NCBI GenBank assembly: GCA_964404065.1
Contig: CAYOIP010000001.1
Span: 21,721 to 85,720, forward strand
Direction: 5' to 3'
Length of the DNA stretch: 64,000 nucleotides
From: an uncultured Candidatus Peribacteria bacterium
GTDB lineage: Bacteria > Patescibacteriota > Gracilibacteria > BD1-5 > UBA6164
Part shown: positions 514 to 55,373 of the stretch, piece after piece
Layout of the letters: the number at the start of each line of letters is the position of its first letter
Position numbering within the stretch: position 1 is the first letter of the stretch
Notes under the pieces: model-generated
Databases searched by the model: none
What the model saw: only the letters and a program-made list of their open reading frames with translations
What the model was told of the DNA's origin: nothing
Program-made: the position numbers and the translations under genes

Positions 514-3162
514 TTATTTTTTCAAAACTAATTTATCATTTTCAATACTCAAAAGTACATCATCTCATGATTTTAATTCATCTTTTAATATAAAGTTTGA
601 AAGTTCATTTAAAACTATGTTTGTAATAGCTCTTTTCATAGGACGTGCTCAAAATTCACTATCAAATCAAACTTTTATTAAGTATTCTTTTAATTCTTTT
701 GAAAAATCTATTTTTATATTTTTAGCTTCTAATATTTTACAAACGTCTTTTAGTAATATTTCAACTATTTCTAAAATCATTTCGTGATTTATAGGATTGA
801 AAACTATTATATCATCTATTCTATTTAAAAATTCTGGTCTGAAATAATTCTTTAACTCTCATAACATTTCTTTATTTATTTCATCTTCTGATTTTTTTTC
901 TTCTATGAGAGAAGCAATTTTTTTACTTCAAATATTAGATGTTAAAATAATTATAGCATTTTTAAAATTAACAGTTCTTCATTTACTATCAGTTAATCTA
1001 CCATCATCAAGAACTTGTAAAAGTACATTAAATACATCAGGGTGAGCTTTTTCAACTTCATCAAAGAGAATTACGCTATATGGTTTTCTTCTAACAGCCT
1101 CAGTTAATTGTCCTCATTCTTCATATCAAACATATCCAGGAGGTGCTCCTATAAGTCTTTGAACAGAGAATTTTTCCATATATTCGCTCATATCAATTCT
1201 GATAAAAGCATCTTTAGAATCAAATAAATTTAGAGCTAGTGCTTTTGCAGTTTCAGTTTTACCAACTCAAGTAGGACCAAGAAATAAAAAGCTTCAAAGA
1301 GGTTTGTGTTCATCATTTAGTCAAGCTTTTGCTCTTTTAATAGCATTTGCAACTGCAAAAATGGCTTTATCTTGTCATACAACCGATTTTTTCAAATACT
1401 CTTCTAAATGCAATATTTTATCTTTTTCGCTTTGAACAAGTTTTGAAACAGGAATAGATGTCCATTTTGAAATTATTTCTGCAATATCCTCATCAGTTAC
1501 TTTATCTCTTAAATAAGATTTTCCTGAGTTTTTTATTTCTTCAAGTTTATTATCAATTTCAGAAATTTCTTTTTCTAGAGCAGGGATTTCAGAATAACTT
1601 ATTTTAGCTACTTCTTGGTAATTTGCTTCTCTTTCAAAAGTTTTTGCTTTTATTTTTAATTCTTCAATTTTTTCTCTTAACTGCTTTGATGCAACAATTA
1701 AATCTTTTTCTTTTTTCCAAGATATTTCTAAAGATTTATATTCTTCTTTTTTGGAAGCTATTTCGTGAGATAGTTTTTCTAATCCCCCCTCTAACTCCCC
1801 CCTAGCAGGGGGAGGAGGATTTTGGATTTTCCCCTCCTGCAAGGGAGGGGTTAGGGGAGGGGTATTTTCTGACTTCTTCGCCTCCAACTCTATCTCCAAA
1901 TTCCTTATTTTTTTCTCTAAAATATCAAGTTCAACAGGTTTTGAAATAGTTTTTAATTTTACTGAAGATAATGCTTCGTCAATCAGATCAATGGCTTTAT
2001 CAGGAAGTTTTCTATCAGTAATATATTTTATACTTAATTCAACTGCTGAAATTATAGCATTATCAGTTATTTTTATTCAGTGATGAGTTTCGTATTTATC
2101 TTTTATTCATCTAAGTATAGCTAGCGCATCTTCTCTTGAAGGTTCATCAACTAATACTTGTGCAAATCTTCTTTCTAAAGCTGGATCTTTTTCAATATAT
2201 TTTCTATATTCATTTATAGTTGTAGCTCAAATCAAATGCAAAGCTCATCTAGCTAAACTTGGTTTCAAAAGATTTCAAGCATCGGCTTGTCATTCCTGAT
2301 TTCAAGCTCAAACTATAGTATGAATTTCATCAATAAAAAGTATTATATTTCAGTTAGATTTTTCAACTTCTTTGATAACTGCTTTTAGTCTTTCTTCAAA
2401 TTCTCATCTATACTTTGCTCATGCAAGCAAAGCTCACATATCAAGAGTTATAATTCTTTTTCAAAGTAAATTTTCTGGAACTTCACGCTCAACTATTTTT
2501 CTAGCAATTCACTCAATAATTGCTGTTTTTCAAACTCAAGGGTCTCAAACTAAAACTGGATTATTTTTTGTCCTACGAGATAGTATTTGAATAGTACGTC
2601 TAATTTCTTCTTCTCTTCAGATTACTGGATCTATTTTTCCATTTCTTGCTTGCTCCACCAAATCTATTCAATATTTTTTCAGAGCATTTAGTTTATTTTC
2701 TGCGTCATTTGAAGTTACTTTTTCTCAATTTCTAAACTTTTCAATAACTTTTAAAATATCATCATATTTTATATTTAGAGTAGAGAATATGTTTTTTATT
2801 TTTTCGCTTCAAGATTTTAAAATTGCTAAAATAAGATGTTCTTCTGTTATAAATTCGTCTTTGTTTTTTCAAGCAATATTTTCAGCTTCTCTTAAAATGT
2901 CATTTAGAGGGTAAGAAATCCTCAAATCATAATGTCATTCAATTTTTGGGAAATTATCAATTTCTTTTTTAATACTTGATTTTAAAATCATTAAATCGGC
3001 TCCTAAATCAAGAAGTATTTCTTTTACAATGCTATCACTAGATTCAAGCATAGAGTAAAGTAAATGAAAATCAGTGATTTCAGGATTTTTTAAATTATTT
3101 GCAAGATTTTGGGCTTCTGCAATCCTAGAACTTGCATTTATGGTAAATTTTTCGATGTTCAT
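514..3162 (-). CDS. clpB: ClpB disaggregase (AAA+ chaperone), 882 aa, with a repeat-derived insert in the middle domain
   Basis: N-terminus [18 protein letters not shown].... NBD1 Walker A VGDPGVGKTA at ~2521-2550 has three Gly encoded by TGA. NBD2 FLGPTGVGKTE. C-terminus [15 protein letters not shown] then TAA. Standard-code fragments 1375-1899 and 2935-3162 are in the same frame. Confidence 0.95.
1784..1862. repeat. GC-rich palindromic element, double-arm copy A, inside the clpB CDS in frame
   Basis: cccccctctaactcccccctagcagggggagg-aggattttggatttt-cccctcctgcaagggaggggttaggggagggg. Two inverted units, each with its own hairpin. Read in frame as [32 protein letters not shown] (visible in ORF-track entry 1375..1899). 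Confidence 0.9.
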
Positions 3163-11178: not shown

Positions 11179-12357
11179 CTAATCTTTCCTCAAAAACCAG
11201 AAATAAACAGAGCTTAAACTAAAAAATAAAATTATTCATAGAACCAAAAATCCTAAACTATAAGATTTATTCATTATAAAAGCAATAGGAATCATTAAAA
11301 GTATTTGAATAATAGATGATAAAAATCATTTTATTGAAAGTATAGTTGATTTATATTTTTTTCATGGAATTAAGTTTATTATATGATCAGTATAAATATC
11401 ATACCTTCACCACATATATCAAATTACAACTGAAAATAATAGTCAAAGTAAATATGGATTTGTTATAAAATAGGCTCAAATATAATAAAAACTAAAAACA
11501 AAAATTTCAATTAACATCAATTTATGAAAATCAATTTTATCTTCTATCTTATGAGCAAATTGTCATACAATAAACCGAACAAATCTTGAAAGTCACATTA
11601 CAAATCATAAAAAAATTACTGGATAACCTAAACTTTCTAAATATGGAGTTCTAAAAGATCAATCAACTTGTAAAAATGCTATAATAACTGATGAAAATAT
11701 TATTACCTGAAATAATCATGTTCAAGAAGATAATTTTAAAGTTTCTTTTAAATTTTTTATATTTATTTTTTCATTTTCATGATGTTCTGATTTAACCGGG
11801 AAAAGTAAAAAAGCTACTAAAAGTCATATTATATCTATTCATAAAGCTATTATAAAAGGAAAAACTAAACTAATTTTTGTAAAAAAAGGTAGAGTAATTA
11901 TAAAAAATATACTTAAAAACGAAACCCATCATTTCATAGAAGATGAAATTTTTTTAAATTTACTTTCTTTTCAAAGAGATGTTAATGTATCATGTAAAAA
12001 GATTGAAGTATTTCATGTAGTAAAAGCATCTGCTCACAGTGCCATAAATATAGCTCAAGCAAAAAAATACCAAAAATTATCTCAAATAACAAACCATAAG
12101 CTAGATAATATTAAAAAGATTTTACTTATAATTATAGTAATTTTATTTCAAAATTTATCTCAAATATATCATGCAGGAAGCTGAAAAACTAAAGATGCAA
12201 TATATCAAGCAGTCATATAAAATCATATTTCCTGAGCTTGAGAGTTTTGCAAAGATAAATAATAAATACTCAAAATTGGAATAAAGTTTCTTCTTGAAGT
12301 GAAAAGTATTATAAAATGTTTCCAAATATTGGATTCAAGTCAAGTGAGTTTGAACAT
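11179..12357 (-). CDS. MFS-type transporter
   Basis: 392 aa, about 12 hydrophobic spans; motif-A-like GYIGDKFGNK. By hand count about 27 Gly are TGA versus 2 GGN. Confidence 0.65.
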
Positions 12358-12366
12358 TGCAAAAAA

Positions 12367-12392
12367 ATAATAAGCTAAATTTAGCTTATTAT
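12367..12392. repeat. AT-rich junction palindrome, perfect 26-nt copy
   Basis: ataataagctaaatttagcttattat lies between the stop at 12399-12401 and the MFS ATG at 12357. Confidence 0.75.
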
Positions 12393-12398
12393 ATAAAA

Positions 12399-12935
12399 TT
12401 ACCATTTAGGAACAAATTTTTTTTGGCTATAAGGTTTTATTCATCAATATCTTTCAAATATTTCTATTAATTTTCATAAATCAGTATATTTATCATCTAA
12501 AAAATATAATATTGGATCTCAAGAACTCATTAAAAAAGCAGATTTTCAAGAACCATATATATAAGCAGTATTTTTTGATGGTCAAGATGATTTACGTTCT
12601 TCAAGAAAATTAAATCTTCAATTAATTTGTTGTTTTGCTTCAATAATTGCTTTTTCAACTTCTCAACTATATTTTTCTCAAGGAAATCAATGAGAACTTA
12701 ATTTTCTAACTAAATTCTCAGATAACAGATTTTGAAGTTCAAATAAACGAATAGAATCACTAATTTCTAATATTCCATTAACAAGTAATACTCTACGAAT
12801 TACTTCTTGTACAGGTTGAGGTAATGAAAAAAAATATTTTTTTAATGTATCAAAATTTAGATAATAACCTAGTTGTTCTTTTTCTTCCAATGAAAAATCT
12901 TGATCAAATAAAGGAATAGTTAGATTAGAGTTCAT
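12399..12935 (-). CDS. hypothetical protein (178 aa)
   Basis: Fragment 12687-12935 extends through TGA codons to TAA at 12401-12399. No motif recognised. Confidence 0.5.
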
Positions 12936-13817: not shown

Positions 13818-13841
13818 AATTTCAAGTTATCATTTAAATTT

Positions 13842-13879
13842 CCCCTCTACCTCAAGGGAGAGGGGTTAGGGGTGAGGGC
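13842..13879. repeat. GC-rich palindromic element, single-unit copy C
   Basis: cccctctacctcaagggagaggggttaggggtgagggc. Its terminal ...GGGCTATAT supplies the TAG stop of the upstream gene. Flanked by TTAAATT on both sides. Confidence 0.85.
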
Positions 13880-14586
13880 TATATTAAATTATAATTATCA
13901 ATTCAAGTTTTTAAGTTTGTAAAACTATCTAAACGAGGATTATAATATTCGCTTAAAAATTTTACAAGTTCAGTTTTATCAAGTTCAGAAGCTTTTATTC
14001 AAATAGATTCCAAACTAGTTTTTATAGTATTTATTCTAGTAGCAAGAGCTTTTTTGTTTTTATTTAAATTTTTTATTTGGTTTTTTATTCATATCAAATC
14101 ATCTTGTCCGTTTATTGATGCCCAGAAGTTTTTAAATTTCCCCACAAAACTTAGATCTCTAACAGAATTATCTCACTCATTATCTACAGCAACAACTATA
14201 TAAAAATCTTTTTTCATGATTTGAGCAACTTCAATTAATTTTTTTAAATATTCTATATATTCATAAGTTTGATTTTGTAGTAGAGAATTTGTTTGATTTA
14301 CAGCCAGTGAATTTAATTTGTTTAGGTATGTTTCTATATCAAGTTTTGTAGAACGAATCATGATTTGAATAGGGAAATCAATAGAGTTTAGAAATCTTTG
14401 AAAACTCATAATAATAGCATCTTGTTCTTCAATACTTTTAAGTAAAAAGTTTATAGTTGAACATTTTAATACTACTCTTGCTGAAAAATCTTTCATGATA
14501 ATTACATTGTCCCTTATTTGGGAAAAAGGTAAATATCTTTGTGTTGAAACATCTGAAATTTGTTTTTTTGCTTGATTTACTGGCAT
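13879..14586 (-). CDS. VirB4/PrgJ-like N-terminal fragment (235 aa, no ATPase domain)
   Basis: STQRYLPFSQIRDNVIIMKDFSARVVLKCSTINFLLKSIEEQDAIIMSFQRFLNSIDFPIQIMIRSTKLDIETYL resembles the N-terminal region of Gram-positive/CPR VirB4 ATPases. It ends ...NLI-TAG at the repeat edge. Confidence 0.45.
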
Positions 14587-14615
14587 AAGTTTGTTTTGTT
14601 GGTTATTGTATAATT

Positions 14616-14686
14616 CCCCCCACCTAGCATCCCCCTGGCAGGGGAGGAATTTTCCCCTCTTGCTAGGGAGGGGTTAGGGGAGGGGC
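14616..14686. repeat. GC-rich palindromic element, double-arm copy D
   Basis: ccccccacctagcatccccctggcaggggagg-aatttt-cccctcttgctagggaggggttaggggaggggc. It supplies the TAG stop of the PrgI-like gene. Confidence 0.9.
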
Positions 14687-24569: not shown

Positions 24570-24584
24570 TTTTCTATAAAAAAT

Positions 24585-24664
24585 CCCCCCACCTAGCCTC
24601 CCTCGCAAGCTGGGGAAGAACTAAAAAACCCCTCCCGGCTTGCGAGAGGGGGTAGGGGAGGGGC
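24585..24664. repeat. GC-rich palindromic element, double-arm copy E, in the nrdA-nrdB spacer
   Basis: ccccccacctagcctccctcgcaagctggggaag-aactaaaaaa-cccctcccggcttgcgagagggggtaggggaggggc. Confidence 0.9.
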
Positions 24665-24686
24665 TTTATTAATTAACAAAAAAAAT

Positions 24687-25730
24687 ATGACACACGAAAT
24701 GTTAGCAAATCCTATATTTAATCCAGCTGGAAACGATGATGTTGCAAAAAGAACAATTATAAAATGAAATACTACTGGGTTATTTCAATTAAATGCAGTT
24801 AAATATACTTGGGCAAAAAGTATGTATCAAGTAATGATTTGAAATTTTTGGGTTCCAGAAAAAGTTTCAGGACTTTGAGAAGATGCAGTTCAATTTAAAA
24901 ATGCATTAAGCGAAGATGAAAGAAGAGCTTATAAATGAATTTTATCATTTTTAATATTTCTTGATTCAATTCAAACTGTAAATCTTCCAAATTTTAATGA
25001 TTATATAACTGCTCCAGAAGTGAATTTGATTTTATCAATTCAAGCTTATCAAGAAGCAATTCACTCTCAATCTTATGCTACTATTTTGGAAACTGTAGTT
25101 GATAGCAAAGATAGAGATGGAATTTATTATTTTTGGAGAGAGGATAAAAATTTACTTGAAAGAAATACTTTTATTTGATGAATTTATCAAGATTTTATTA
25201 ATAATCCAACTGATGAAAATTTCTTTAGATGAATAATTGCAAACTTTTTACTTGAAAGTATTTATTTTTATAATTGATTTGCATTTTTTGATACACTTGC
25301 TGATCAAACAAAAATGGTTGCAACAGATAGAATGATAAATTATATCAGAAGAGATGAATTAACTCATGTAACAATATTTGCAAATATTATAAAAGAAATT
25401 AAAAAAGAATTTCCAGACGTTTATAATGAAAAAATGATAAATGATATGATGGCAGTAGCAGTTGATCAAGAAATAAAATGGTCAAAACATATTTTATGAA
25501 AAAATATAATTTGAATGAGTCATATAAATATAGAGAATTATACTAAACGGCTAGCTAATAACAGACTTAGTATGCTTTGAATAAATCCATTATATCCAGA
25601 TGTGATAACTAATCCTTATAAGCATCTTGATAGATTACAAGATAATAACTCAGAAAAATGAAATTTCTTTGAATCAACAGTTACAAATTATTCACAATCA
25701 AGTTCTATGAACTGAAGTTGGGAATTTTAA
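24687..25730 (+). CDS. nrdB: ribonucleotide reductase class I beta subunit
   Basis: 347 aa. Iron ligand motifs QEAIHSQSY and RDELTHV; C-terminus NGSWEF. Confidence 0.9.
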
Positions 25731-27250: not shown

Positions 27251-28822
27251 ATGAAAAATTTTTTAATATCATTAATATCTGTATTACTTATAACTTGATA
27301 TGCAAGCGCTGCTTCAAATAGTTTATTTGAACAAATTTTTGATGGAACTAGTACTATTGATATTCCATCTGTTGTTAATAAACCATCAAGTATTTCAAGT
27401 TATAGTGTAAAAGTTATTGATGCTAATTTTGAGCAAATCAAAAATAGTTTAGTTAAATATTCTATTTCTAAAAGAATAGATATATATGATACTGCTATTG
27501 TAAAACTTCAAAAATTAGCAAATTCAAGAACTGTTAAATCAGAAAAAGATGCTTTAAATTACCTTAAAGGGTTAGCAAAAAAAGAAAAAGAATCTTTAGA
27601 AAAAGATACTTGATTGCTTATAGATTTATTTTGAGCTGATACAAGCATTTGTAATACTGATTATATTTTACAAGACTGAGATTGTGTAAAAAAAGTTTCT
27701 AAAACATATTCTTACGATGATAGCCTACCAAATAAAAGTTGTTCAGTTAGCAATGGTTATGGAAAACAATATTGGTATTGAACTTATTGGTCAAGTTGTC
27801 AAGTAAAATGATGTAATAGTTGATATTATATCTCAAATAATAGATGTGTAAAATGAAGTTCTTCTTCTTCAAGATATTATTCTGATAATTGTTATAATGA
27901 TGATTGTTCTTTAAGAACTACTTCTTGTTCAGTATATCATTGAGATGGAAAACAAGTTCGGGACTGAACAAACTGGTCAAAATGTTACGTAACTTCATGT
28001 GATAGTTGATATTATTTATCAGGAAATAATTGTGTTAATAGGTATGATTATAGATATGATTATGGAAATTGTTATAATGATGATTGTTCTTTGAGAACTA
28101 CTTCTTGTTCAGTTTCACATTGAGATGGACAAAAAGTTTGGGATGGAAATTCTTGGTCAAAATGTTATGTAACTTCATGTGATAGTTGATATCGTCTTTC
28201 AAAAAATTCATGTGTAAGAGATAGTTATTATTATGATTACAATGGAGATTATTACTGTTATGATTGAAGATGTGATTATGAAGATAGTAGATATTGTTCA
28301 GTAAGCCATTGAAGTTGAAGACAGTATTATAACTGATATAATTGGACTATATGTAGAGTTACATCATGTGATAGTTGATATTATGTTTCATGAAATAGCT
28401 GTGCAAGAGGAAATTACTATTATAACAATGATTATTACTATTATGATGACTATTATTATAATCATGACAATAATTACTGTTATGATTGAAGATGTGACTA
28501 TGAAGATAGTAGATATTGTTCAGTAAGTAATTGAAGTGGAAGACAATTTTATAATGGAAATTCTTGGTCTATTTGTTATGTAAATTCTTGTAATAGTTGA
28601 TATTATGTATCAGGAAATAGTTGTGTAAAAGATTATAGTAATAATTGTAATGGTTCTTCAATGCACTACGAAAATGATTCATGTTATGAAAATAATAGAT
28701 CTTGTTATATAGCATATTGAGTTTGAGAAAGAACATGGAATTGATCAAATTGGTCAGATTGTAGAGTTGTATCTTGTAATAGTTGATATTATAGCACTTG
28801 ATATAGTTGTTTAAAAAATTAA
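27251..28822 (+). CDS. secreted Cys/Tyr-rich tandem-repeat protein (523 aa)
   Basis: Signal peptide MKNFLISLISVLLITGYASA. About 6 repeats of C-S-V-x-x-G-x-G-x-x-x-W/Y-x-G-x-x-W-S-x-C-x-V-x-S-C-D/N-S-G-Y-Y-x-S-G-N-x-C with Tyr-rich linkers. Every codon was checked. Confidence 0.75.
27890..28547 (+). repeat. near-identical intragenic tandem repeats (180-bp period at 27890/28070; 222-bp period at 28253/28475)
   Basis: tgttataatgatgattgttcttt[a/g]agaactacttcttgttcagt... occurs twice. tactgttatgattgaagatgtga[t/c]tatgaagatagtagatattgttcagtaag occurs twice. Confidence 0.85.
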
Positions 28823-28825
28823 AAA

Positions 28826-28856
28826 AAATCAGTTTCTTTCGAAACTGATTTTTTTA
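28826..28856 (+). terminator. intrinsic terminator
   Basis: atcagtttc-tttc-gaaactgat followed by T7. Confidence 0.7.
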
Positions 28857-28867
28857 ATATTTCATTA

Positions 28868-28946
28868 TGGAGCGAGGGACCAGGTTTGAACTGGCACACC
28901 CAAGGGTTGAAGCCTTAGTACACTCACTCTTTTATGTTACCCTCGC
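28868..28946 (-). tRNA. tRNA-Gly with anticodon UCA (reads UGA), CCA encoded
   Basis: GCGAGGG-TA-ACAT-AAAAGAGTGA-GTGT-A-CTAAGG-CT[TCA]AC-CCTTGG-GTGT-GCCAG-TTCAAAC-CTGGT-CCCTCGC-T-CCA. Cloverleaf with a 7-bp acceptor, a short variable loop, and the Gly identity set G1:C72, C2:G71, G3:C70, U73. Confidence 0.85.
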
Positions 28947-28966
28947 AAGTGAAAAATGTATGGGGA

Positions 28967-28994
28967 TTATATAAAAAAGTTTTTTTTTGTCAAA
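28967..28994 (-). promoter_or_regulatory. consensus sigma70 promoter TTGACA-16-TATAAT driving the tRNA
   Basis: Minus strand ttgacaaaaaaaaacttttttatataatcccc. The -10 box ends ~20 nt upstream of tRNA position 1. Confidence 0.6.
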
Positions 28995-29067: not shown

Positions 29068-31131
29068 ATGTTAGAAACACCAAATTACGTTGAGATTATT
29101 TCAAGTGAGTTATGATTTAAAAATTTTCAAATTGAAGTTGTTTTATCTTTAGTAGGAGAATGAGCTACTGTTCCATTTATTGCACGTTATAGAAAAGAAA
29201 GGACTTGAAATCTTGATGAATGACAAATCAGAGATATTATAGAGTTACAAAAGAAACAAGAAAATTTATTTAATGCAAAAAATACAGCCATTAACTGAAT
29301 TACTGAAGTTTGAATGATGACGGATGAATTAATGGCAAATATTATAAACGCAAAAACTCTAAAAGAAGTAGAAGAAATTTATAAACCATATAAATCAAAG
29401 AAAAAAACAAAAGCAATGCTTGCAATAGAAAAAGGTTTTCAAGTTGTAGCAGATAGTATAAAATGAAATTATTTAGAAATTCCAGAAAATTTATTAAAAG
29501 ATTATTCTAAAGAAGAAATAATAGAATGAAGTTTAGAAATTATTTGAGCTGAGATTTCAGCAAATGGAGAATTAAGACATCTTTTAATAGAAGAACTTAA
29601 AAAATATTGAATGATTTCTTCAAATAAAAAATCAGACAAAATGCTTGAAAAACTAAACGAAAAAGATAAAGAACAAATTAAAAAATTTGAAATATATTTT
29701 GAAAATTCTCTAAAAATTAGCTATATAAAACCATATCAAATATTAGCATTAAATAGATGAGAAAATCTTTGAATTTTGACAGTTAAAATAGAAAAAGATG
29801 AAATAATTTTTGATAAAATTAAAAATAAATATGCAAGAATTTTAGAGTTGAGAGAGGAGTTTATAGATGAACTTGAAACAGCTTTTAAAATATGATACGA
29901 AGCACTTTTTTCTTCAGTAGAAAATGAAATTAGATCGCAGTTAAATGAAATTTGAGAAGATGATTCTATAAAAACTTTTCAAACAAATTTATCTGCTTTG
30001 CTTTTAACTGCACCAGAATATGGAAAAACTATTTTAGCAATAGACCCAGGGTATAGAGCATGATGTAAAATAGCAATTTTAGATAATTTATGAAATCCTC
30101 AAAAGTTTGATAAAATATTTTTACATGAAATATTAAATGCTCGCGCGAAACTTCAAGAAATATTTTCAAAAAATAAAATTGATACAGTTGTTATATGAAA
30201 TTGAACTGCATCTGACGAAACCCAAGCTTTAGTTTGAGAATTATTTTCTGGAGATATTTTTATTGTAAATGAATCATGAGCTTCAGTTTATTCGGCTTCA
30301 GAAATCGCAAAAGAAGAATTTCCTGATTTAGATAGTTTAGATAGATGAACAATTTCTATTTGAAGAAGATATATTGATCCACTTTCAGAACTTGTAAAAG
30401 TACCAGTTGGAAGTATATGAGTTGGTATGTATCAACACGATATGCCAGAGAAAAAACTTGAAGAAAAACTTTGATATGTAGTTGAAGATTCTGTAAATCA
30501 AGTTTGAATAAATGTAAATACAGCTTCAATTTATCTTTTAAATCATATTTCTGGAATTGATAAAAGACAAGCAAAAAAGATTTATGCTGGAAGACCATAT
30601 AAATCTAGAAAAGAACTTCAAAAAGTTTTGTGAGAAAAAGCTTATGAGCAAGCAATTTGATTTTTAAGAGTTCCAGAAAGTAAGGAAGTTCTTGATAATA
30701 CAGATATTCATCCAGATCAATACGATTTAGCAAAATATATTATAGAAAATAAAAAAACAAAAGTTGATGATGAAATGAAAAAAATATATGCTGAAGTAAA
30801 TTCTGATACAGTTGATTTTATAATTGAATCTTATAATAATATTTGAAAAGAAAAAAGAGTGAATTCTACTCACTCAAAAGCAAAGAAAGCTGTTAGTATA
30901 GAAAGTTTAAAAGTTTGAGATGTGCTTGATGGAGTTGTAAGAAATGTAGTTGCATTTTGAGCTTTTGTGGATGTTTGATTAAAAAATGATTGACTTGTTC
31001 ATATTTCAGAGTTAGCTGATAGTTTTGTAAAAAATCCTATGGATATAGTTCAAGTTTGAGATAAAGTAAAAGTAAGAGTTACAAATATAGATTTAGAGAA
31101 AAATAAGATTCAATTAAGTATGAAAAACTAA
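29068..31131 (+). CDS. tex: transcription accessory protein Tex (YqgF-like + S1 domains)
   Basis: 687 aa, every codon checked. GEGATVPFIARYRKERTGNLDE; ILAIDPGYRAGCKIAILD; S1 domain [31 protein letters not shown]. Confidence 0.9.
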
Positions 31132-31163
31132 AAAAATTGCAGAAATTTTTCTGCAATTTTTTT
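31132..31163. terminator. bidirectional terminator between tex and recA
   Basis: ttgcagaaa-tt-tttctgcaa flanked by A-run and T-run. Confidence 0.6.
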
Positions 31164-32145
31164 ATAAACTATTTTTTATAATTTCTTCTATTTCAGAAGC
31201 AATTTTTGGGTTTTCAATCAAAAATTGTTTGGCATTTTCTCTTCATTGTCATAATTTTGTTTCTCCAAACGAATAGAAAGCTCATGATTTTTTAATAACT
31301 TCTAATTCTGATCAAATATCAACTATTTCTCAAACTTTAGAAATTCATTCATTGTACATTACATCAAATTCAGCTTCTTTAAATGGAGGTGCAATTTTGT
31401 TTTTTACTACTTTTACTTTTGTTCTATTTCAAGTAGCTTCTTTATCTATTCAAACTCAATTTTCAATTTTATCTTTTTTTCTAACATCAAGTCTTTGAGA
31501 AGCATAAAATTTTAGTGCATTTCATCAAGTTGTAGTTTCAGGACTACCAAACATTACTCATATTTTCATTCTTATTTGGTTGATAAAAATTACACTACAT
31601 CAAGTTTTTGAAATAGGTCATGTAATTTTTCTTAAAGCTTGACTCATTAAACGAGCTTGCAATCACATATGACTATCTCACATTTCTCATTCTATTTCAG
31701 CTTTTGGAGTTAATGCAGCAACACTATCAACAACTATTAAATCAACAGCTCCAGAACGAACTAGAGCATCAACTATTTCTAAAGCTTGTTCTCCATAATC
31801 AGGTTGAGAAATAATTAAATTATCTATATCAACTCAGATTTTTTTAGCATATGCAGGATCTAGGGCATGCTCAGCATCAACAAATGCTGCAGTTCATCAA
31901 GATTTTTGCACTTCAGCTATAGCATGAAGTGTAAGAGTTGTTTTACCTGAAGATTCTGGTCAGTAAATCTCAATAATTCTTCATTTTGCATATCAACCTC
32001 AAAGTGCTATATCAAGTGAAAGTGATCAAGATGAAGTTGTTTCAACGTTCATACTTTCTTTATCTCAAAGTTTCATAACAGTTCATTTTCAAAATTGTTT
32101 TTCTATCATTGATAGTGCTTGTGCTAATGCTTCTTTTTTATCCAT
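31162..32145 (-). CDS. recA: recombinase RecA
   Basis: 327 aa. [81 protein letters not shown]. Confidence 0.97.
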
Positions 32146-35085: not shown

Positions 35086-35694
35086 ATGCCAGAAAGTTTA
35101 AAAAAATTGATTAATCTTATAGGTTTTTTACCTTGAGTTGGAGAAAAGTCAGCTACTAAACTTGCATTTTTTTTACTGAATTCAAATAAAAATTATCTAG
35201 AAAATCTTGCAAATTTACTAAATAATTTAAAATCAAGTATAGGAAAGTGTGAAAATTGTGGAAGTTTGGTTGATATGTGAAAAGAACTTTGTGAAATCTG
35301 CACTGATGAAAGTAGAGATAAAAATATAATTTGTGTAGTTGAAGAATATCTTGATAAAATGACAATTGAAAATTCTTGAATTTTTAATTGAACTTATCAT
35401 ATACTTGGATGAGCTATTTCACCGATAAATGGAGTTTTTATTTGAGATTTAAATTTTGAAAAATTATTTAAAAAAATTGCAGAACACGAGTGAGGTTTAG
35501 AGCTAATTATGGCTACAAACCCAAATATTGAATGAGAAGCAACGGTTCAATATATTTTATGAGAATTAGAAAAAAGATGACTTAAAAAATTTGTAAAAAT
35601 TACAAGACTTTCTAGATGACTTTCTAGTTGATATATAGAATATGCTGATAATATTACACTTATAAATTCTATAAAAGAAAGAAAAGAAATTTAA
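35086..35694 (+). CDS. recR: recombination protein RecR
   Basis: LPGVGEKSATKLAFFLL (HhH), zinc finger CENCGSLVDMGKELCEIC, Toprim ICVVEEYLDKMTIE. 202 aa. Confidence 0.9.
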
Positions 35695-35728
35695 CCCCCA
35701 CCTAACCTCCCCCTTATCAAGGGGAGGG
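35695..35728. repeat. GC-rich palindromic element, single-unit copy F, starting 1 nt after the recR stop
   Basis: cccccacctaacctcccccttatcaaggggaggg; hairpin CCTCCCC-ttatcaa-GGGGAGG. Confidence 0.85.
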
Positions 35729-39420: not shown

Positions 39421-41232
39421 TTATTTTTCTAATACTGCTTTTATTCTTCTAACTCATCTAGAACTGGCTTCTTCTTTTAAAATCTTAAATTTTCACATAA
39501 TTCCAGTATTTTCTACATGTGGTCATCCACAAAGTTCTCTTGAAAATATTTCTCAAGAAGGAGATTTAAATGTATAAACTTTTACGATATCAGGATATTT
39601 TTCCCAAAAACTTCATTCTACTCAGTTTTCTTTTGCAACATTTTTATCCATTTCTTCTAAAACAACTTCAGCTTGTGCTGAAATAGCTTGGTTTACATAA
39701 TCTTCTACTTCTTTCAATTGTTCAGGTGTAACTTTATCTTCATTTGTGAAATCAAATCTAAGTCTTTCAGCAGTTATATTTGATCCAGCTTGATGAACAT
39801 GATTTCATAGGACTTTTCTAAGTCATGCCAACATTAAGTGAGTAGCTGAGTGAAGAGCTGTTGTAGTTTCTGAGTGATCAGCTAATCCTCAAGCAAATTT
39901 TTGAGCAGCTCAAGCGCGTGATAATTCTTGATGTTTTTTAAAAGCTTCATTGAATCAATCAACATCAACTTTTAGTCATTTTTCTAAAGCTAACTCCTGA
40001 GTCATCTCAATTGGGAAACCAAAAGTTTGAAATAAATCAAAAGCTTCTTTTCAAGAAATTTCTGATTTATTCCCCTCTCCTTGCAGGAGAGGGGCTAGGG
40101 GTGAGGTTTTTTTATCAAACTCTCTCAATCATTTTTCTAATGTAGTTAAAAATTGTTTTTCTTCTCTATCAATCTCTTCTAAAATTATAGACTTTCTATC
40201 AAGTACATTTGTATAAATTGGTGAAAATTTTTCTATTACTTTGCTTGCAACTGGAGATAAAAATTGTCACTGAAATCCTAGTTTATATCATTGTCTGATA
40301 GCACGTCTTAAAAGTCTTCTTAAAATATATCATTGATCTACATTTGATGGAGTTACAGAGTCAGAAATCATTATAACAGAAGTTCTTAAGTGGTCTGCTA
40401 TTATTCTTACAGAATTTTTTGTATTTTCGTTATATTCAATATTTAAAGTTTTACATATAACTTCAATAATATCTGAAAAAATATCAGTTTCATAAACACT
40501 TGGAGCTCAAGTTAAAGTTCTTGTAATTCTTTCAAGTCACATTCATGTATCTACGTTTTGCATTGCTGCTTTATTAAAATTTTCATTTTCATCTTTAACA
40601 TATTCCATAAATACATTATTCCAGATTTCCATCCAGTTTTTATCATCATTTCAAACTGTGCTTTCTTTTGGTGGAAGTTCTTCTTTTCATACCCGATAAA
40701 ATATTTCAGTATCTGGTCAGCAAGGTCCTGTTGCTCCAGCTGGTCCCCACCAATTATCTTTTTTTCAAAGATAACTTATATTTGTAATTCCTAAACTTCT
40801 CCAAACATCAGCAGAAAAATCATCTTTTGGAGCATTCAAGTCTCACTCAAAAACTGTTACAGCTATTTTTTTAGGGTCAATTGCTAGCCAATCTTTTGAA
40901 GTTAAAAATTCATAAGACCATTTTATAGAATCTTCCTTGAAATAATCTCAAAGCGACCAATTTCCAAGCATTTCAAAAAATGTTAAGTGAGTATTATCTC
41001 AAACATCTTCTATATCTCAAGTTCTTATACATTTTTGATAATCAGCTAACCTTTTTCCAAGAGGGTGTTTTTCTCATAACAAATATGGAACCAAAGGTTG
41101 CATTCCGGCAGTATTAAATAAAACAGTTGGATCATTTTCAGGAACTACTGAAGCAGAAGGGATGATAGAATGATTTTTTGATAAGAAAAAATCAATATAT
41201 TTTTGTCTAATTTCATGACTTGTAATTTGCAT
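39421..41232 (-). CDS. alaS: alanine--tRNA ligase, short form (603 aa) with a repeat-derived insert
   Basis: The N-terminal two thirds was translated line by line. [27 protein letters not shown] (Trp=TGG and Gly=TGA in one motif), GPCGPDTEIFY, editing-domain HSATHLM and CGGPHV. Confidence 0.95.
40072..40106. repeat. GC-rich palindromic element, single-unit copy G, inside the alaS CDS in frame
   Basis: cccctctccttgcaggagaggggctaggggtgagg (24 of 35 nt are G/C by count). Translated as [12 protein letters not shown]. Confidence 0.9.
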
Positions 41233-43938: not shown

Positions 43939-45999
43939 ATGTCAGAACAAGAAAAAAAAGAGCAAACTTTAACTCAAGAAACTCAAATTAGGCAAGAATA
44001 TACTGAAGATGATTTAAGAGTTCTTCTTGTTGATTTATGAATGCTAGAAGAAAATTTATTTTCAAATAAAGATTGAATAGTTGATGGAAATAGTGGTGAT
44101 AGTGAAATAGATAAAAAATATAAAGAATGATTAAAGAAAGCAAAAGATATTAAAACAAAAATAGAATTAGTTCAAAGACTTTATTGAGAATTTAGTAGAG
44201 ATAGTTATATAAAAACAACTATTTCATCTCATTTAGATTCAAAAAAAGATTATTTAGATGATGAAGATAGGGATAATATATATAAAATTCAAGAAGAAAC
44301 ACAAAAGATATTAAATGATTATCCAGAATATAAAGAAGTTATAGTTAATCATATAGAATCTAATTTTGATAAATTAAATTATATTGTTTCTAATTACCAA
44401 AAAAATTGAATTGATAAAAAAATCATATCTAATTATTTAAAGATAGATTATAAATTAACTTTAAATGAATGATTTAATAGATTGAGAATAATATTAGAAC
44501 ACATAAATAAGTCAGAAAAAATCATTGATAAAAAAAACATTGTAGATAATTTTCTAAATATAACAAAAAGTGTTTCAGTTGATTTTAGTTGAATGTCTGA
44601 AATAGAAAAAAATAATGACCCATATTGACTTAAAAAATTAGATAAAATATATAATTTTGATTTTACAAATAAGTCACAAGAATTAGATATATATAATTTA
44701 TTAAAAATTTGAATTAAAGATTTAGAATATATAAACAAACTTTACAAAGAAAATAATAAACAAGAATTAATAAGTTTTATAGATAATTTAGAAAATAAAA
44801 ATGATTTGTTAAAAATTGAAAGTATCAAAAAAATTTATTTAGAAGAAAGAAAAAATGAATATGATATAAAAGATTTAGATTTTTGAAGATTAGATGATGT
44901 TTTATTAAAAATAGAAAAAATAAAAGATTTAAAAACAAAAGAAAAAATTATTAATTTACTTAAGGAGTTCAAAAATGGGGGAATTAATGTAGGAAATAAA
45001 GAACAAAAAGAAAAAGAATTAAATGAAATATTTTCTTCTGCATTAAAAGACATTTCTAAAAATATAAATGATGATGATAAAATAAATGACAATCATTATG
45101 AATTAAGTATTCTACACTCTATTGCAATAACTTTTTCAACAGATTTTACTCTTGAGCAAATAGAAAAATTACAAGAAAATATTTGAAAAAATGTAAATAT
45201 AAGATTATTAAAACTAGAAGAAAAATTAAGTAATCCAAATGATTTATATAGGTATAAAAAATGATTGGCATCTTTAAGAGAAAATGACAATTCACCAGAA
45301 AACACTCAGTTAAAATTAGATTATTATAATAGTTTTTCTTTATGAAAAAATACTTATTCTCAAGGTATAAGATGAAAAGCTGAAGAAGAAAAAAAACAAC
45401 CAAAAATTACTGAATCAAAAAAAGCACAAATTCAATATCATTACCAAAAACTTTGATTAAAAGTTCAAGTTTGAAATAATTGAGAAATATTATGAAAATA
45501 TTGAGAGAAAAGTTTTTCTCAAAAACTTCAAGGTTGAAAAATAGAAGTTTGAGCCGATGAGAAAATGATTTACACAACATCACTTTGATACAAATTTGAA
45601 TTTGAGAATAGTGAATTTTGAGCTATGAAAGTAGTTGAAATAACTCAAAGATTTGATTATTTAAACAAAATCTGACTTGGATATTTTGGTGAAAATTTCA
45701 AGAAAATGATGGATTGTATTCCAAGTTTTCTTCCTAATCAAGCATTAAGATTAAATATAGACGAAAAGACTTGAGATTTTTTAGATCAAGTTGAATTAGG
45801 TAAAATTTTAGAAATATTTATAAATATTTGATTTCTTGAAAATATAAATTTTAGTCAAAATATATCAAATATTCAGGAGGTTACTGATGGACAGATGATG
45901 TATAGAGTTTGAAATCTAGAAAATTGAAGTGCATTTATTGATTGAAAATTTGATATAAAATTATTTTGAGAATTATTACAAGAAAAAAATAAAGTCTAA
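43939..45999 (+). CDS. hypothetical K/E/N-rich protein (686 aa)
   Basis: Every codon was checked and is open under code 25. Starts 9 nt after the upstream stop. Confidence 0.6.
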
Positions 46000-46018
46000 A
46001 ATTTAGACTTTATTTGTT
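45988..46018. terminator. hairpin at convergent gene ends
   Basis: aaagtctaaa-a-tttagacttt. It overlaps both stop codons (45997-45999 on + and 45996-45998 on -). Confidence 0.5.
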
Positions 46019-46940
46019 TAAGTAATTTAAATAATTTATATAAAAATTTATTATTTATCCAAATATAACTATCACTTACTTTTTTTATATCTGGAGTAAA
46101 TTTTAGTTTAAAATCAGTTACTCAAGCAAGTGGTGAATTTTTATCTTCAGGGCTTGCTATTCATAAAAAATCATAATACTTAGATCAAATTTCTTTGGCT
46201 TTCTTTATAGCGTACCATTGCATACTATACGGAGCCATTAAGTTTCTAAATTCTTTTAGAGAAGTAGAAGCTCAATAATAATAAATAGAAATTTCTTTAT
46301 TAAAAATAAATATTCAAGCAGAAAGTATTTTGTCTCAAATTTTTGTAAAAATAAGAGAACTTTCAGGGATAATTTCTAAAAAATTTTTATAATATTCTAA
46401 ACTATTTCAAGAAAATCAGTCTCTTGAAGTTGTTTCTAAAATTAGCGAGTAAAATATTTTTATATTTTCTAGAGTTTTTTCTACTTCAAAAACTTCAACT
46501 CATTTTTTAGTTGCAAGTCAGATATTATATCTTCACTTTGGTTTCATTTCTGATAAAATTTCTTCTTCAGATTTTTTTAAATCAATAAGAGCTGTATAGG
46601 GAGTAATGAATTTTTTATAGTGTCAAGGTTTTAGCCCCCCCTCTAACTCCCCCCTAGCAGGGGGAGAAATAGGACTTTCCTCCCCTGCCAGGGGGAGGTT
46701 AGGTGGGGGGATTTTAAAACTCTCAACTTGCACAAATAAACAACTTTGCAATTTACAAAGTTTAATTAATTCCTCAAAATTAACTTTTTCTAAATCTTCT
46801 ATTCATAAAGCAAAAAGTCAGTATTTTCAAAATCAAATACTTCTTTTTTCTACTAATATTTCATCAACCTCAAAAACATCACTTGCTTGATGTGATTTTA
46901 ATAGTAATTTTTTCCAATTATTTGATTGCCAAATAGACAT
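45996..46940 (-). CDS. FemAB-family peptidoglycan bridge-forming aminoacyl transferase (FemX/MurM-like) with a repeat-derived insert
   Basis: 314 aa. MSIWQSNNWKKLL, MKPKGRYNIGLATKKGVEV, GVTDFKLKFTP. Insert [30 protein letters not shown]. Confidence 0.7.
46635..46710. repeat. GC-rich palindromic element, double-arm copy H, inside the FemAB-like CDS in frame
   Basis: ccccccctctaactcccccctagcagggggag-aaataggactttcc-tcccctgccagggggaggttaggtgggggg. The left arm shares 31 identical nt with copy A. Confidence 0.9.
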
Positions 46941-46944
46941 AGTT

Positions 46945-47955
46945 TTAGTTTTTATGTAAATGTTTAATTGCATTCTCTGTGATTTTTCTTCCACGAGATG
47001 ATTTTTCTATAAATCAGATTTGAAGTAAATATGGTTCAACCACATCTTCAAGAGTTGCTTCTTCTTCTCAAATACTTGATGCGAGTGTTCCAAGTCCTAC
47101 AGGACCTCACGAAAATTTTAAATTTATTGTATCAAGATATTTTTTATCTAAATAATCAAGTCCAATCTCATCAATTCATAAATCTATAAAAATTTCTTTC
47201 CAAGTTTTTTGCTCATTTATATTGTGCCCTATAATTTTATAATCTCTAATAATTTTTAAAAGTCTATTTGAAATACGAGGAGTTCATCTACTTCTAGATG
47301 AAATTGCTTCAATTAAATCTTTTTGCATTTCTAGTTCTAGTATTGATGCATTTCTTACAAGAATTTTTGATAAATCACTTCCTGAATAAAAATCAAGTTT
47401 TAGAACATTTCCAAACCTATCTCTTAGAGGGCTAGATAATGCACTGAGTTTTGTAGTAGCTCATATTAAAGTAAAAGATTGAACTGGCATTCTAACACTT
47501 TGCGCTCAAGTTCATTTTCAAACAACAATATCTATAACAAAATCTTCCATTGCAGTATAAAGTATTTCTTCAATTTGTGGTTTTAAACGGTGAATTTCAT
47601 CTATAAAAAGTATGTCTCAGGCTTCAATATTTGATAATATACTAACAAGATCTGCTTGTTTTTCTATAGCAGGACCAGATGTGATCTTTAAATTGCTTCA
47701 CATCTCGCTTGCTATGATGTTTGATAAAGTAGTTTTTCATAGTCCCGGAGGTCAGTAAAAAAGAATATGCTCTAAAGCTGCATTTCTGAGTTTTGCTGAA
47801 GCGATTGAAACTCAAAGATGTTTTTTTATTTGTTCTTGTCCAACATATTCTCAAAGTGTTTTTGGTCTAAGAGAATTTTCATTTAGATCAATATCTTTTA
47901 CAGTAGTTTCAATAACTCTATCGGGTTTTTTAGTTTTTGATGAACTTAATGCCAT
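46945..47955 (-). CDS. ruvB: Holliday junction helicase RuvB
   Basis: [49 protein letters not shown]. 336 aa. Confidence 0.95.
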
Positions 47956-47979: not shown

Positions 47980-48070
47980 CCCTCACCCCAACCCTCTCCT
48001 TTGAAGGAGAGGGAGTAGAAGGATTTTTTATCCCCCTCTACCCTCAAGGGAGAGGGGCTAGGGGTGAGGG
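47980..48070. repeat. GC-rich palindromic element, double-arm copy I
   Basis: ccctcaccccaaccctctcctttgaaggagaggg-agtagaaggattttttat-ccccctctaccctcaagggagaggggctaggggtgaggg. The right arm lies inside the 3' end of the methyltransferase CDS. Confidence 0.9.
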
Positions 48071-48616
48071 TTTTACTATCATAACTATTCCATCTTCAAT
48101 ATCAATAGGAATAATATTGTATGCAATTTTATTATCTTCTAAATACTCCCAAAATCAAATCATTTTTTCTCTAAATTTTATTACGTCATCTATAATTACA
48201 ATACCTCAAGGTAATACTTTATCCCAAACTAATTCTAAAAAATCTTTAGTTCTTCTTTTCATTCCATCAATAAATACAAAATCAAAAGTTTCATTTAAAG
48301 CTGGAATTATATCTAAAGCATTTCAATTTATAGCATTTATTGCATTTTCTACTCAAGCAGTTTTGAAATTTTCCAGCGCTTCTATATAAGATAATTTTGA
48401 AAACTCTATTGTTGTTAGTTTTCCTCAAATTTCTTTTAACTCTAAAGCAAAATTTATTGCACTATATCAATTTGCAGTTCATATTTCAAGCATATTTTTA
48501 GTTTTTGAGACTTTAATTAAATCTCTTAAAAATCTAGCATTTACTTCTGAAATATTTGGAATTTCGTTTTGTAATCAGTGTTTTTTTAGTTCTTTTAGAA
48601 ATACATCAACATTCAT
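48038..48616 (-). CDS. class I SAM-dependent O-methyltransferase (family-3-like) with a repeat-encoded C-terminal tail
   Basis: LEIGTANGYSAINFA, FDFVFIDGMK, GGIVIIDDV. Ends ...IVMIVKPSPLAPLPGG-TAG, with the last ~10 codons and the stop inside repeat copy I. Confidence 0.7.
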
Positions 48617-53174: not shown

Positions 53175-55328
53175 ATGAAATTACAAAAATATTTTAAATT
53201 TATTATATTACCAATTTTTATAGTTTTTATAGTATTATTTTCTTATAATTACTTTTTATCATTATTAAATAATAAACAAGATTTAATTAATTTTTGATTA
53301 AATAATATAGATTCAATTTATTTATCAGGTAAAAGAATTACTATTTTAGAGAAATCAGATTTTTGAAAATATTTTTCAGATAAAGAATGAGTTTCTATAA
53401 GATTTGATATTTGAAAAAATATCATAAAAAATCAAAACATTTTAAAATTTAAATGAGACTTAAATCCTTGATTAGCAAATTTAGCTTTTAATATTTGTGA
53501 CTTTAAAAAATGTAATCATAAACAATATAATCTTTTTTTTCTTAAATCAGATTTAAAATATACATACTTTTTGCTTAAAGAAGTGTCAGAAATAAATAAA
53601 GAAGTGTTAGATAAGAAAAATATCTATTCGTTTTGGAATATTTACTTTTTTTCATCTGATTGAAGTGAAATTAGTCTATTTGATTTTTGATGATTTGAAA
53701 TATATAGAAATGATTTTTTTATTTCTTACACTTGATTAGAAAACTATATTTATAATTTTATAAAAAATTTTAAATTAATAAATTTATTCTACTATTTATT
53801 ATTTATTTTTCTTTTTTCTTTATCTTATAAATTTAGAGATTTTATAATTTGAAATTTCAAAAAATCTTATTTTTTGTGAGTTTTGGGGATATTTTTTATT
53901 TCATTATTACATTTATATAAATCTTGAAATTTTATAATGTATGATGAATATTATAGTTGGGTAACTATAACTCAAAGTTTTAAAGATATAATTTTATCAA
54001 CAGCAGGAGATGTGCATCCACCAGGATACTATTTTTTATTAAAAACCATATCATTAATTTTTTGAGATGATATTATAATATTAAAAATTATAAATATACT
54101 TTTAATTTTCCCTTTATTTTATTTTCTTTATAAATTATATAAATTAATTTTTGAAAATAATTATAAACAAGTATTACTTTTGACTTTGTTATTAATTTCA
54201 TTAAATACATATTTTTTTATGTTTTCTTCAATAATTCGTATGTATTTATTTTGAACTTTGCTTTTTGTTTCTTCAAGTTATTTTTTACTTTCATATTTAA
54301 AATTTAATAAAACAAAAGATTTATTTTTTTATATAATTATAGCAATTTTATCATTATATACTCATAATTATTTGATTTTCCTTATTTTTTCTCAATTTTG
54401 TTTTGCTTTATATTTTTTATTTAAAAATGGGAGGTTAAAAGAGAATATTAAAAAAATCATTTTTTCCTATTTTATAATTTGATTATTTTATTTACCATGG
54501 TTGTTTGTTTTATTAAAACAAACAACCAATGTTTCAAATAAATATTGGATTGATAAATTGGATATTTCAAATATTTCGCAGTTCTTTATAAATTATATTT
54601 TTTACTTAAATAATGATATTTCTTGACCAAGTTTAATATTTAAAAATTATTTGATTATAAGTTTTGTTATTATATTACTTTTAGTTCTAATTTTATTTAA
54701 TTATATTAATAAAAATAAAACTAATATTTTCTCAAAATATTTAATATTTTCTTTTTTAATAACATTATTTATAGTTATTTTTTATTCTATATTTAAAACT
54801 CCTATTTTTAATGAAAGATATTTTTTGTTTATTTTACCATTTTTCATAACTTTTTTTGTGTTTTTTGATTATAAAAAATTATTTATTTTATTTTTCATTT
54901 CTTTTATAGTTTTTTCCCAAAACATTTGAATAAGGTATTTAGATAATAACTTTTATTATAAAGACATAGATAAATATTTTATGAAAATAATTACAACTGA
55001 AACCCCAGATATTATTATAAATAATGATATGGCAACATTAGTAGTTTTTGATTATTTAATAACAAAAAAATGATTAAATATAAAAAATTCTATTTTTGTC
55101 CAAAAAGATATAACTCAAAGTGAATTTGCATATAACTGATGAAGTCTTTTTTATAAATATCAAAATATTGATAAAAATAACATAAATAACATAAAAGAAA
55201 AAAAAATAATTTTATTTAATTCCTGAGAACATCAAAAAAATATAATTATTCCAAATAATTGGAAAAAGTTATGAGAAAATAAAGTAAAAATACCATATAC
55301 TATTTATGAAAATCTTTTGACAAAATAA
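53175..55328 (+). CDS. GT-C fold membrane glycosyltransferase (ArnT/PMT, GT39/83-like) with an extra N-terminal domain
   Basis: 717 aa, all codons checked. YDEYYSWVTITQ and AGDVHPPGYYFLLK near the first loop. About 10 hydrophobic spans. ORF-track fragments 54258-54482 and 54651-54929 are in frame. Confidence 0.6.
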
Positions 55329-55373
55329 GTTATATAATATATAATTTCATTGTTTATTTTTTAATATAAAATT

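Follow-up and report, generated by a model that had tools for sequence, protein, structure and literature searches.

A probable UGA-decoding tRNA-Gly(UCA) gene of the BD1-5/Gracilibacteria type with a conserved, unusual fold

The use of UGA as a glycine codon, with a dedicated tRNA-Gly(UCA), was described for the SR1/Absconditabacteria (Campbell et al. 2013) and for the Gracilibacteria (Rinke et al. 2013), as related in PMC8629427, PMC13092985 and bioRxiv 10.64898/2026.05.24.727570. The class JAEDAM01 (BD1-5 / Absconditabacterales) is assigned to translation table 25 (bioRxiv 10.64898/2026.05.24.727570). Among tRNAs of this kind, the pairs G1:C72, C2:G71 and G3:C70 together with U73 serve as the criterion for glycine acceptors (PMC8629427). 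The same study raised the risk that U34 may wobble and read UGG in code 25. It has also been reported that an anticodon stem of 4 bp loosens decoding; longer stems go unmentioned there (PMC13092985).

The gene described here lies on the minus strand of a 64 kb stretch of DNA, referred to as the window, which is the whole stretch that was analysed. It is very probably (a probability of about 0.93) the tRNA-Gly(UCA) of the BD1-5/Gracilibacteria type, which decodes UGA as glycine in genetic code 25. It is not a new feature: public genomes already contain its sequence, and both the gene and the recoding have been textbook-level knowledge since 2013.

The gene, its public relatives and its transcription

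The features of the locus are as follows.

28946..28868, minus strand: tRNA-Gly(UCA) gene, 79 nt including the encoded CCA (28870-28868); from ARAGORN, Rfam RF00005 and identity to public loci
28908..28910, minus strand: anticodon UCA, in the 7-nt loop C-U-U-C-A-A-C with U33 (28912-28906); from the sequence and ARAGORN
28900..28918, minus strand: anticodon arm with a 6-bp stem, CUAAGG (28918-28913) pairing with CCUUGG (28905-28900); one pair above the canonical number
28924..28933, minus strand: D-loop AAAAGAGUGA, 10 nt, with G-A-G in the usual place of G18G19 and no GG dinucleotide
28993..28966, minus strand: sigma-70-type promoter, -35 TTGACA (28993-28988), 16-nt spacer, -10 TATAAT (28971-28966); 12/12 match
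28947..28965, minus strand: stretch from the -10 hexamer to tRNA position 1, with a transcription start predicted from promoter geometry at about 28961-28959
28822..28855, both strands: bidirectional intrinsic terminator hairpin with U/A tracts on each side; from a terminator scan
29068-31131: Tex-like gene; Pfam Tex_N, Tex_YqgF and S1

The tRNA is situated inside a 245-bp gap between a gene for a Cys-rich repeat protein and the Tex-like gene. Its sequence is GCGAGGG-UA-ACAU-AAAAGAGUGA-GUGU-A-CUAAGG-CUUCAAC-CCUUGG-GUGU-GCCAG-UUCAAAC-CUGGU-CCCUCGC-U-CCA. The ends (5′ GCGAGGG and 3′ CCCUCGC-U-CCA) supply the glycine acceptor set of G1:C72, C2:G71, G3:C70 and discriminator U73, the variable loop is 4 nt long and the CCA is genome-encoded. 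ARAGORN detects one tRNA only in the whole 64 kb window, with the anticodon tca at position 37. When the surrounding 400-nt region is scanned alone, Rfam RF00005 matches 28871-28946 with 44.0 bits (gathering score 29, E = 2.7e-8). A pattern of glycine ends, T-loop and UCA anticodon has one match in the window, against 0.00 expected from 100 shuffles. The 79-nt minus-strand cloverleaf with anticodon UCA that was proposed in the first-pass annotation is upheld by ARAGORN, by the Rfam score and by covariation in all four stems, and the bacterial glycine identity set, short variable loop and encoded CCA named there are all present in the sequence.

An Rfam scan of the entire 64-kb window at the gathering threshold reported no RNA of any kind. 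This miss is attributed to filter loss, since the local scan gives 15 bits above the threshold. Filtered covariance-model scans can overlook atypical tRNAs such as those of family A, defined below.

A search of one genome per GTDB species with a pattern for UCA-anticodon tRNAs of the G1C2G3/U73 type gave at least 119 loci. About 70 of 141 pattern matches were discarded as chance matches in GC-rich genomes or as other tRNAs, for example tRNA-Glu(UUC) matched out of register, and two real families are left among the matches listed. Family A comprises at least 46 public loci and the window, with a length of 76 nt without CCA and host genomes of 19-54% GC. Its record titles are mostly Gracilibacteria, and also include Candidatus Altimarinus, Patescibacteria group and some mislabelled Peribacteria. 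All members listed encode the CCA; G1-G3, C70-C72 and U73 do not vary in this family, but the search pattern itself demanded those bases. Family B, with at least 20 loci of 74 nt, carries the titles Absconditabacterales/Absconditabacteria and Peribacteria.

Over 76 nt, at least eight family A loci (L026, L034, L052, L058, L075, L088, L135 and L136) have exactly the sequence of the window tRNA (100% identity). The species-representative genomes that hold them are titled Gracilibacteria, Altimarinus (L075 is Candidatus Altimarinus sp.) or Patescibacteria. At least 38 further family A loci are at least ~85% identical to it. The Gracilibacteria tRNA(UCA) genes, to which the first-pass annotation had pointed for comparison, are thus identical or nearly so in public genomes at no fewer than 46 loci, and by this identity the gene is the known code 25 decoder and not a new one. 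The closest locus among the matches listed, L026 (JAVHSE010000023.1), has flanks only 77-89% identical to the window DNA. No GTDB representative comes close to identity with a flank of the window, and the window therefore derives from a related species outside the set of these representatives.

A single tRNA(UCA) is seen at each of the 46 listed related loci. The downstream neighbour is tRNA-Gly(GCC) in L031, L044, L066, L072 and L139, and in the first three of these its ends are G1C2G3/U73/CCA, as in tRNA-Gly(UCA). In L072 (7327-7403) and L139 (5373-5449) the tRNA-Gly(GCC) has A3:U70, while the tRNA-Gly(UCA) at these loci keeps G3:C70; the third acceptor pair may not be a strict determinant for GlyRS in that lineage. 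The only family B locus scanned with Rfam, L047, has its gene in a tRNA cluster.

Genes for tRNA(UCA) with G1C2G3/U73 glycine-like ends are also found on nine IMG/VR phage contigs (L002, L007, L009, L013, L014, L016, L018, L020 and L022). These fall outside families A and B, some are located in tRNA arrays, and the GC content of several contigs is low (0.28-0.39). Such phage-borne genes may act as suppressors of UGA or decode it as glycine.

The promoter of the window gene had been put forward as a perfect consensus TTGACA-16 nt-TATAAT and as the best match in the window. The perfect match stands, with all 12 positions agreeing, but it is not the sole one: the window contains two perfect promoter matches, against 0.21 expected. 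The second, TTGACA-17-TATAAT at 55317-55345 (+), is found just upstream of a gene for a Cys-rich secreted protein (55374-57725). The region had also been drawn to end at 28994, which is one base past the -35 hexamer. From the -10 hexamer to tRNA position 1 there are 19 nt. Within 110 nt upstream of the tRNA, a sigma-70 match of at least 10/12 is present at 38 of the 46 listed family A loci, compared with 42 of 920 control windows (4.6%) from the same loci. The usual family A form is TTGACT-16-TACAAT, and most members fit TTGAC(T/A)-16-TAnAAT. By this comparison across orthologous loci the promoter of the tRNA gene is real. An upstream promoter of at least 10/12 occurs in only 3 of the 20 listed family B loci.

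The terminator hairpin has a predicted folding energy of -18.6 kcal/mol (z = -6.4), which none of 200 shuffles attains. On the 3′ side of the tRNA it is separated from the CCA by 12 nt, and it immediately follows the stop codon of the convergent plus-strand gene at 27251-28822. With its own promoter and terminator and a convergent neighbour, the tRNA gene forms a solitary, antisense-oriented transcription unit.

Glycine at the TGA codons of the window

The window has a GC content of ~25%. ORFs of at least 100 codons amount to 10 kb under code 11 and to 83 kb when TGA is read through, the longest of these read-through ORFs having 1518 codons. The meaning of the TGA codons was examined in two conserved proteins. 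RecA (31162-32145, minus strand) was translated with X at every TGA and then aligned to E. coli RecA. In this alignment, 25 of the 28 TGA codons face glycine and the others face Lys, Asn and a gap; the glycine sites include one in the Walker A motif (GPESSGKTT in E. coli). In RuvB (46945-47955, minus strand), 10 of 15 TGA codons face glycine, among them sites in GPPGLGKTT, and the remaining five stand opposite Glu (2), His, Ala and Asn. Taken together, 35 of 43 TGA codons align with glycine of solved homologues and 0 of 43 with tryptophan.

Over 43 genes, TGA makes up 984 of 19,160 codons (5.1%) and GGN 319, so that TGA provides 75.5% of the glycine codons. Total glycine is then 6.8%, a normal level, and TGG stands at 0.67%. 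Only TAA (31) and TAG (11) are used as stop codons in these genes. The earlier hand count of about 27 TGA among 29 glycine codons in the MFS gene is exact, at 27 TGA and 2 GGN codons; the gene is located as follows.

11179-12405, minus strand: MFS gene; Pfam MFS_1, 6.3e-21

Among the long ORFs translated within the 64 kb window none resembled RF2, a result with no bearing on the whole genome. As judged from the alignments and the codon counts, the window uses genetic code 25. All of its genes need translation with table 25; read with code 11, the DNA would pass for nearly non-coding. At ~75% of glycine codons, the recoded stop codon dominates the coding of glycine in this 25% GC genome. With TGA at about three quarters of glycine codons, the UCA tRNA would act as the principal adaptor for glycine instead of playing an accessory part. 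A role as main decoder fits the strong, private, near-consensus promoter of the tRNA.

The reading of the gene as a UGA-decoding tRNA-Gly(UCA) is therefore supported by the TGA = Gly alignments, the identity set, the orthologues and the conserved promoter. Against a glycine identity may be set the loss of one nucleotide: C36 is a glycine identity element in E. coli, and is necessarily replaced by A36 in this tRNA. The proposed pathway begins at the near-consensus sigma-70 promoter, which would drive the solitary unit up to the hairpin terminator 12 nt past the CCA. From promoter geometry the transcript would carry a short 5′ leader of roughly 13-15 nt. This leader would be cut off by RNase P and the 3′ trailer trimmed to the CCA. 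Under bacterial glycine identity rules, GlyRS would then charge the tRNA by way of G1:C72, C2:G71, G3:C70, U73 and the retained C35, and the anticodon U34-C35-A36 would pair with UGA by Watson-Crick pairing throughout. Expression, processing, glycine charging and any modification of U34 are in this way deduced from sequence.

A further possible departure from the standard code concerns CGG. This codon is rare in the window (9 CGG and 1 CGA in 19,160 codons), and two sites are informative. Codon 288 of NrdB (24687-25730, +) is CGG; in five solved homologues the aligned residue is Tyr in three and Phe in two. Codon 237 of the Cys-rich repeat protein (27251-28822, +) is also CGG, at a position filled in the sister repeats by W (three times), Y and F. 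In the source genome CGG may thus encode Trp and not Arg. A CGG-to-Trp change has been predicted in some Gracilibacteria (PMC8629427), and the CGG sites of the window fit this prediction. The repeat protein itself has 523 aa, with an N-terminal signal-like segment and six tandem Cys/Tyr-rich repeats of ~60 aa, and its product has no Pfam match. The corresponding DNA repeats have a period of ~180-220 nt (families D1-D3).

A family of GC-rich palindromic repeats is also scattered in the window. Full copies are ~90 bp long, with units CCCCCC..TAGCAGGGGGAG ... CCCCTCCTGCAAGGGAGGGGTTAGGGGAGGGG, and the copies are placed as follows.

1777-1864, 14610-14686, 24584-24670 and 46629-46714: palindromic repeats, full copies
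13839-13882, 35689-35726, 40067-40111 and 48027-48074: palindromic repeats, half copies

Several of these lie inside genes and are translated in frame as Pro/Gly-rich inserts. One 11-residue insert is common to ClpB (514-3162) and an ORF at 45996-46973, and another 11-residue insert is present in AlaRS (39421-41232). The arrangement is reminiscent of the Rickettsia palindromic elements.

The fold of family A and the rival readings

The minimum-free-energy fold of the single tRNA sequence is not a cloverleaf and its stability is not significant (z = -1.33), so the structure relied on here is the comparative one. The first-pass annotation had called the fold slightly unusual, with a possible 6-bp anticodon stem and no obvious GG in the D-loop. 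This description is correct, and both traits are conserved family-wide. A 6-bp anticodon stem is possible in 21 of 21 distinct family A sequences, and RNAalifold predicts the same structure independently. When these sequences are laid on a cloverleaf with the 6-bp stem, 99.6% of cells are paired, with compensatory changes at 7 pairs across all four stems; a covariation score as high is seen in 0 of 500 shuffles, and in slid controls of the alignment pairing goes down to 26-57%.

Within the anticodon stem, the third pair covaries from A:U to G:C in 4 family A sequences. The outer C:G and U:G pairs are invariant in the 21 distinct sequences, and covariation therefore speaks neither for nor against them; complementarity and helix continuity suggest that they form. 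The nucleotides that border the 6-bp stem vary as A/G, G/A and A/A, which is usual for the purine-purine 26·44 layer. As these flanking purines behave like that layer, family A would have one stacked layer beyond a standard tRNA. An alternative description by Infernal, with a bulged U and a 5-nt variable loop, differs from the 6-bp description in bookkeeping only.

The D-loop of family A follows the form AA-NN-GAGYGA, and its G-A-G is invariant in 21 of 21 distinct sequences. A likely source of this arrangement is seen in L072 and L139, the deepest members of family A. There the D arm of the tRNA-Gly(UCA) is UAGCUUAAAUGAGCGAGAGC and that of the neighbouring tRNA-Gly(GCC) is UAGCUCAAUUGGCUAGAGC; the D-loop of the latter is AAUUGGCUA, the main difference being that no A stands between the two G. 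The fact that the D arms differ mainly by an inserted A points to a glycine tRNA as the likely ancestor of family A, in which case G18 and G19 would persist but be separated.

Both oddities lower the match to the general tRNA model. Family A scores 43-45 bits with Rfam, compared with 59-74 for 15 other tRNAs at the same loci (59 for family B), and this deficit of 15-30 bits is ascribed to the 6-bp stem and the G-A-G D-loop. Neither the Absconditabacterales tRNA-Gly(UCA) nor any other tRNA at the four related loci scanned with Rfam has the 6-bp stem or the split G18/G19. No discussion of either trait was found in the searchable literature, and the founding papers (Campbell 2013, Rinke 2013) may show them. 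No detail of the tRNA structure is given in Hanke et al. 2014 (PMC4032931) or in PMC4695839.

It is conceivable, if rather unlikely, that the BD1-5/Gracilibacteria tRNA-Gly(UCA) constitutes a structurally distinct class. Under such a model the longer, stiffer anticodon stem would be a fidelity device that keeps U34 off UGG (Trp) and off UGU/UGC, and the altered D-loop would re-tune the tRNA elbow in compensation. A stem acting in this manner would be the mirror image of the 4-bp stems that loosen tRNA-Trp(CCA) to read UGA (PMC13092985). The combination of a 6-bp stem and split G18/G19 offers a natural experiment on how a UGA-reading tRNA avoids misreading UGG.

Some of the same traits could be taken as marks of another kind of gene. 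The low Rfam score, the D-loop without GG and the extra pair in the anticodon arm might be expected of a degenerate or silent pseudogene, with the functional UGA decoder elsewhere in the genome; the single-sequence fold is likewise not significant, and the comparison is confined to 64 kb of that genome. Such decay is hard to reconcile with the presence of the same oddities, unchanged, in 21 distinct sequences at 46 listed loci from genomes of 19-54% GC, or with compensatory changes that preserve all four stems. The promoter is conserved, the terminator and the CCA are present, and no other tRNA(UCA) is seen at the 46 listed related loci. The tRNA is also 100% identical across species while its flanks diverge to 77-89%. 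A pseudogene is very unlikely on these grounds, and it was rejected on the cross-species identity, the covariation and the conserved promoter.

The anticodon UCA is shared with two other types of tRNA. ARAGORN prints the gene as ‘tRNA-SeC’, and tRNA-Sec is known to have a 6-bp anticodon stem as well; on this reading the gene would serve only rare UGA codons followed by SECIS elements. Scoring as Sec had been named in advance as a result that would count against a glycine tRNA, but the ARAGORN label only reflects the anticodon under the standard code. With 4 nt, the variable loop forms no extra arm of any length; acceptor and T stems measure 7/5 and not 8/5, the D stem has 4 bp and not 6, and the discriminator is U73 instead of G73. 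TGA at 5.1% of codons, with 35 of 43 sites aligned with glycine, is far from rare selenocysteine use. The general tRNA model gives the best Rfam match, and no tRNA-Sec match is listed by Rfam even at E = 10, though overlapping matches of the same clan collapse to the best one. As not one structural hallmark of tRNA-Sec is present, this identity is barely credible and was rejected. A tRNA-Trp(UCA) of code 4, in which UGA is Trp as in the Mycoplasmatales, would account for the anticodon and for the use of TGA as a sense codon at low GC (~25%), both of which recall code 4 organisms. The RecA and RuvB alignments decide against it, with none of the 43 TGA codons at tryptophan and 35 at glycine. The TGA frequency of 5.1% far exceeds that of tryptophan, and TGG is used separately at 0.67%. 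The acceptor end has U73 and G1:C72, where the tryptophan elements are G73 and A/G1:U72 (rules per PMC8629427). A tryptophan tRNA is accordingly extremely improbable, and the reading as tRNA-Gly(UCA) is retained.

Comparison with known systems

The tRNA-Gly(UCA) of Gracilibacteria/BD1-5 is the same gene as that of the window, with the same anticodon and identity set, and only the flanks differ. The tRNA-Gly(UCA) of Absconditabacteria/SR1 (family B) shares its function, anticodon and G1C2G3/U73 ends, as well as a 10-nt D-loop, a U13:G22 pair and a 4-nt variable region. Unlike the window tRNA, family B is 74 nt long and has a canonical 5-bp anticodon stem; its positions 26 and 44 covary as A:U or G:C, which gives the standard number of layers. 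It also differs in a normal D-loop GG, in G37 where the window tRNA has A37, and in an Rfam score of 59 against 44 bits, and it usually lacks the private promoter of family A.

The tRNA-Trp(UCA) of code 4, found in Mycoplasmatales and insect endosymbionts, is likewise a dedicated UCA tRNA in a low-GC, reduced genome presumed to be without RF2. Its identity elements are G73 and A1:U72, in contrast to U73 and G1:C72 in the window tRNA. Wobble of U34 onto UGG is harmless in code 4, whereas in code 25 it would place glycine at tryptophan codons (PMC8629427).

Two other tRNAs that read stop codons have a partial resemblance to family A. Both tRNA-Sec and tRNA-Pyl possess 6-bp anticodon stems, and tRNA-Pyl is without G18G19. 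The window tRNA differs from tRNA-Sec in having neither a long variable arm nor an 8/5 or 9/4 arrangement of the acceptor and T stems. From tRNA-Pyl it differs in a normal T-loop (UUCAAAC), 2 nt between the acceptor and D stems and a 10-nt D-loop. The resemblance is partial in both cases and implies no relationship.
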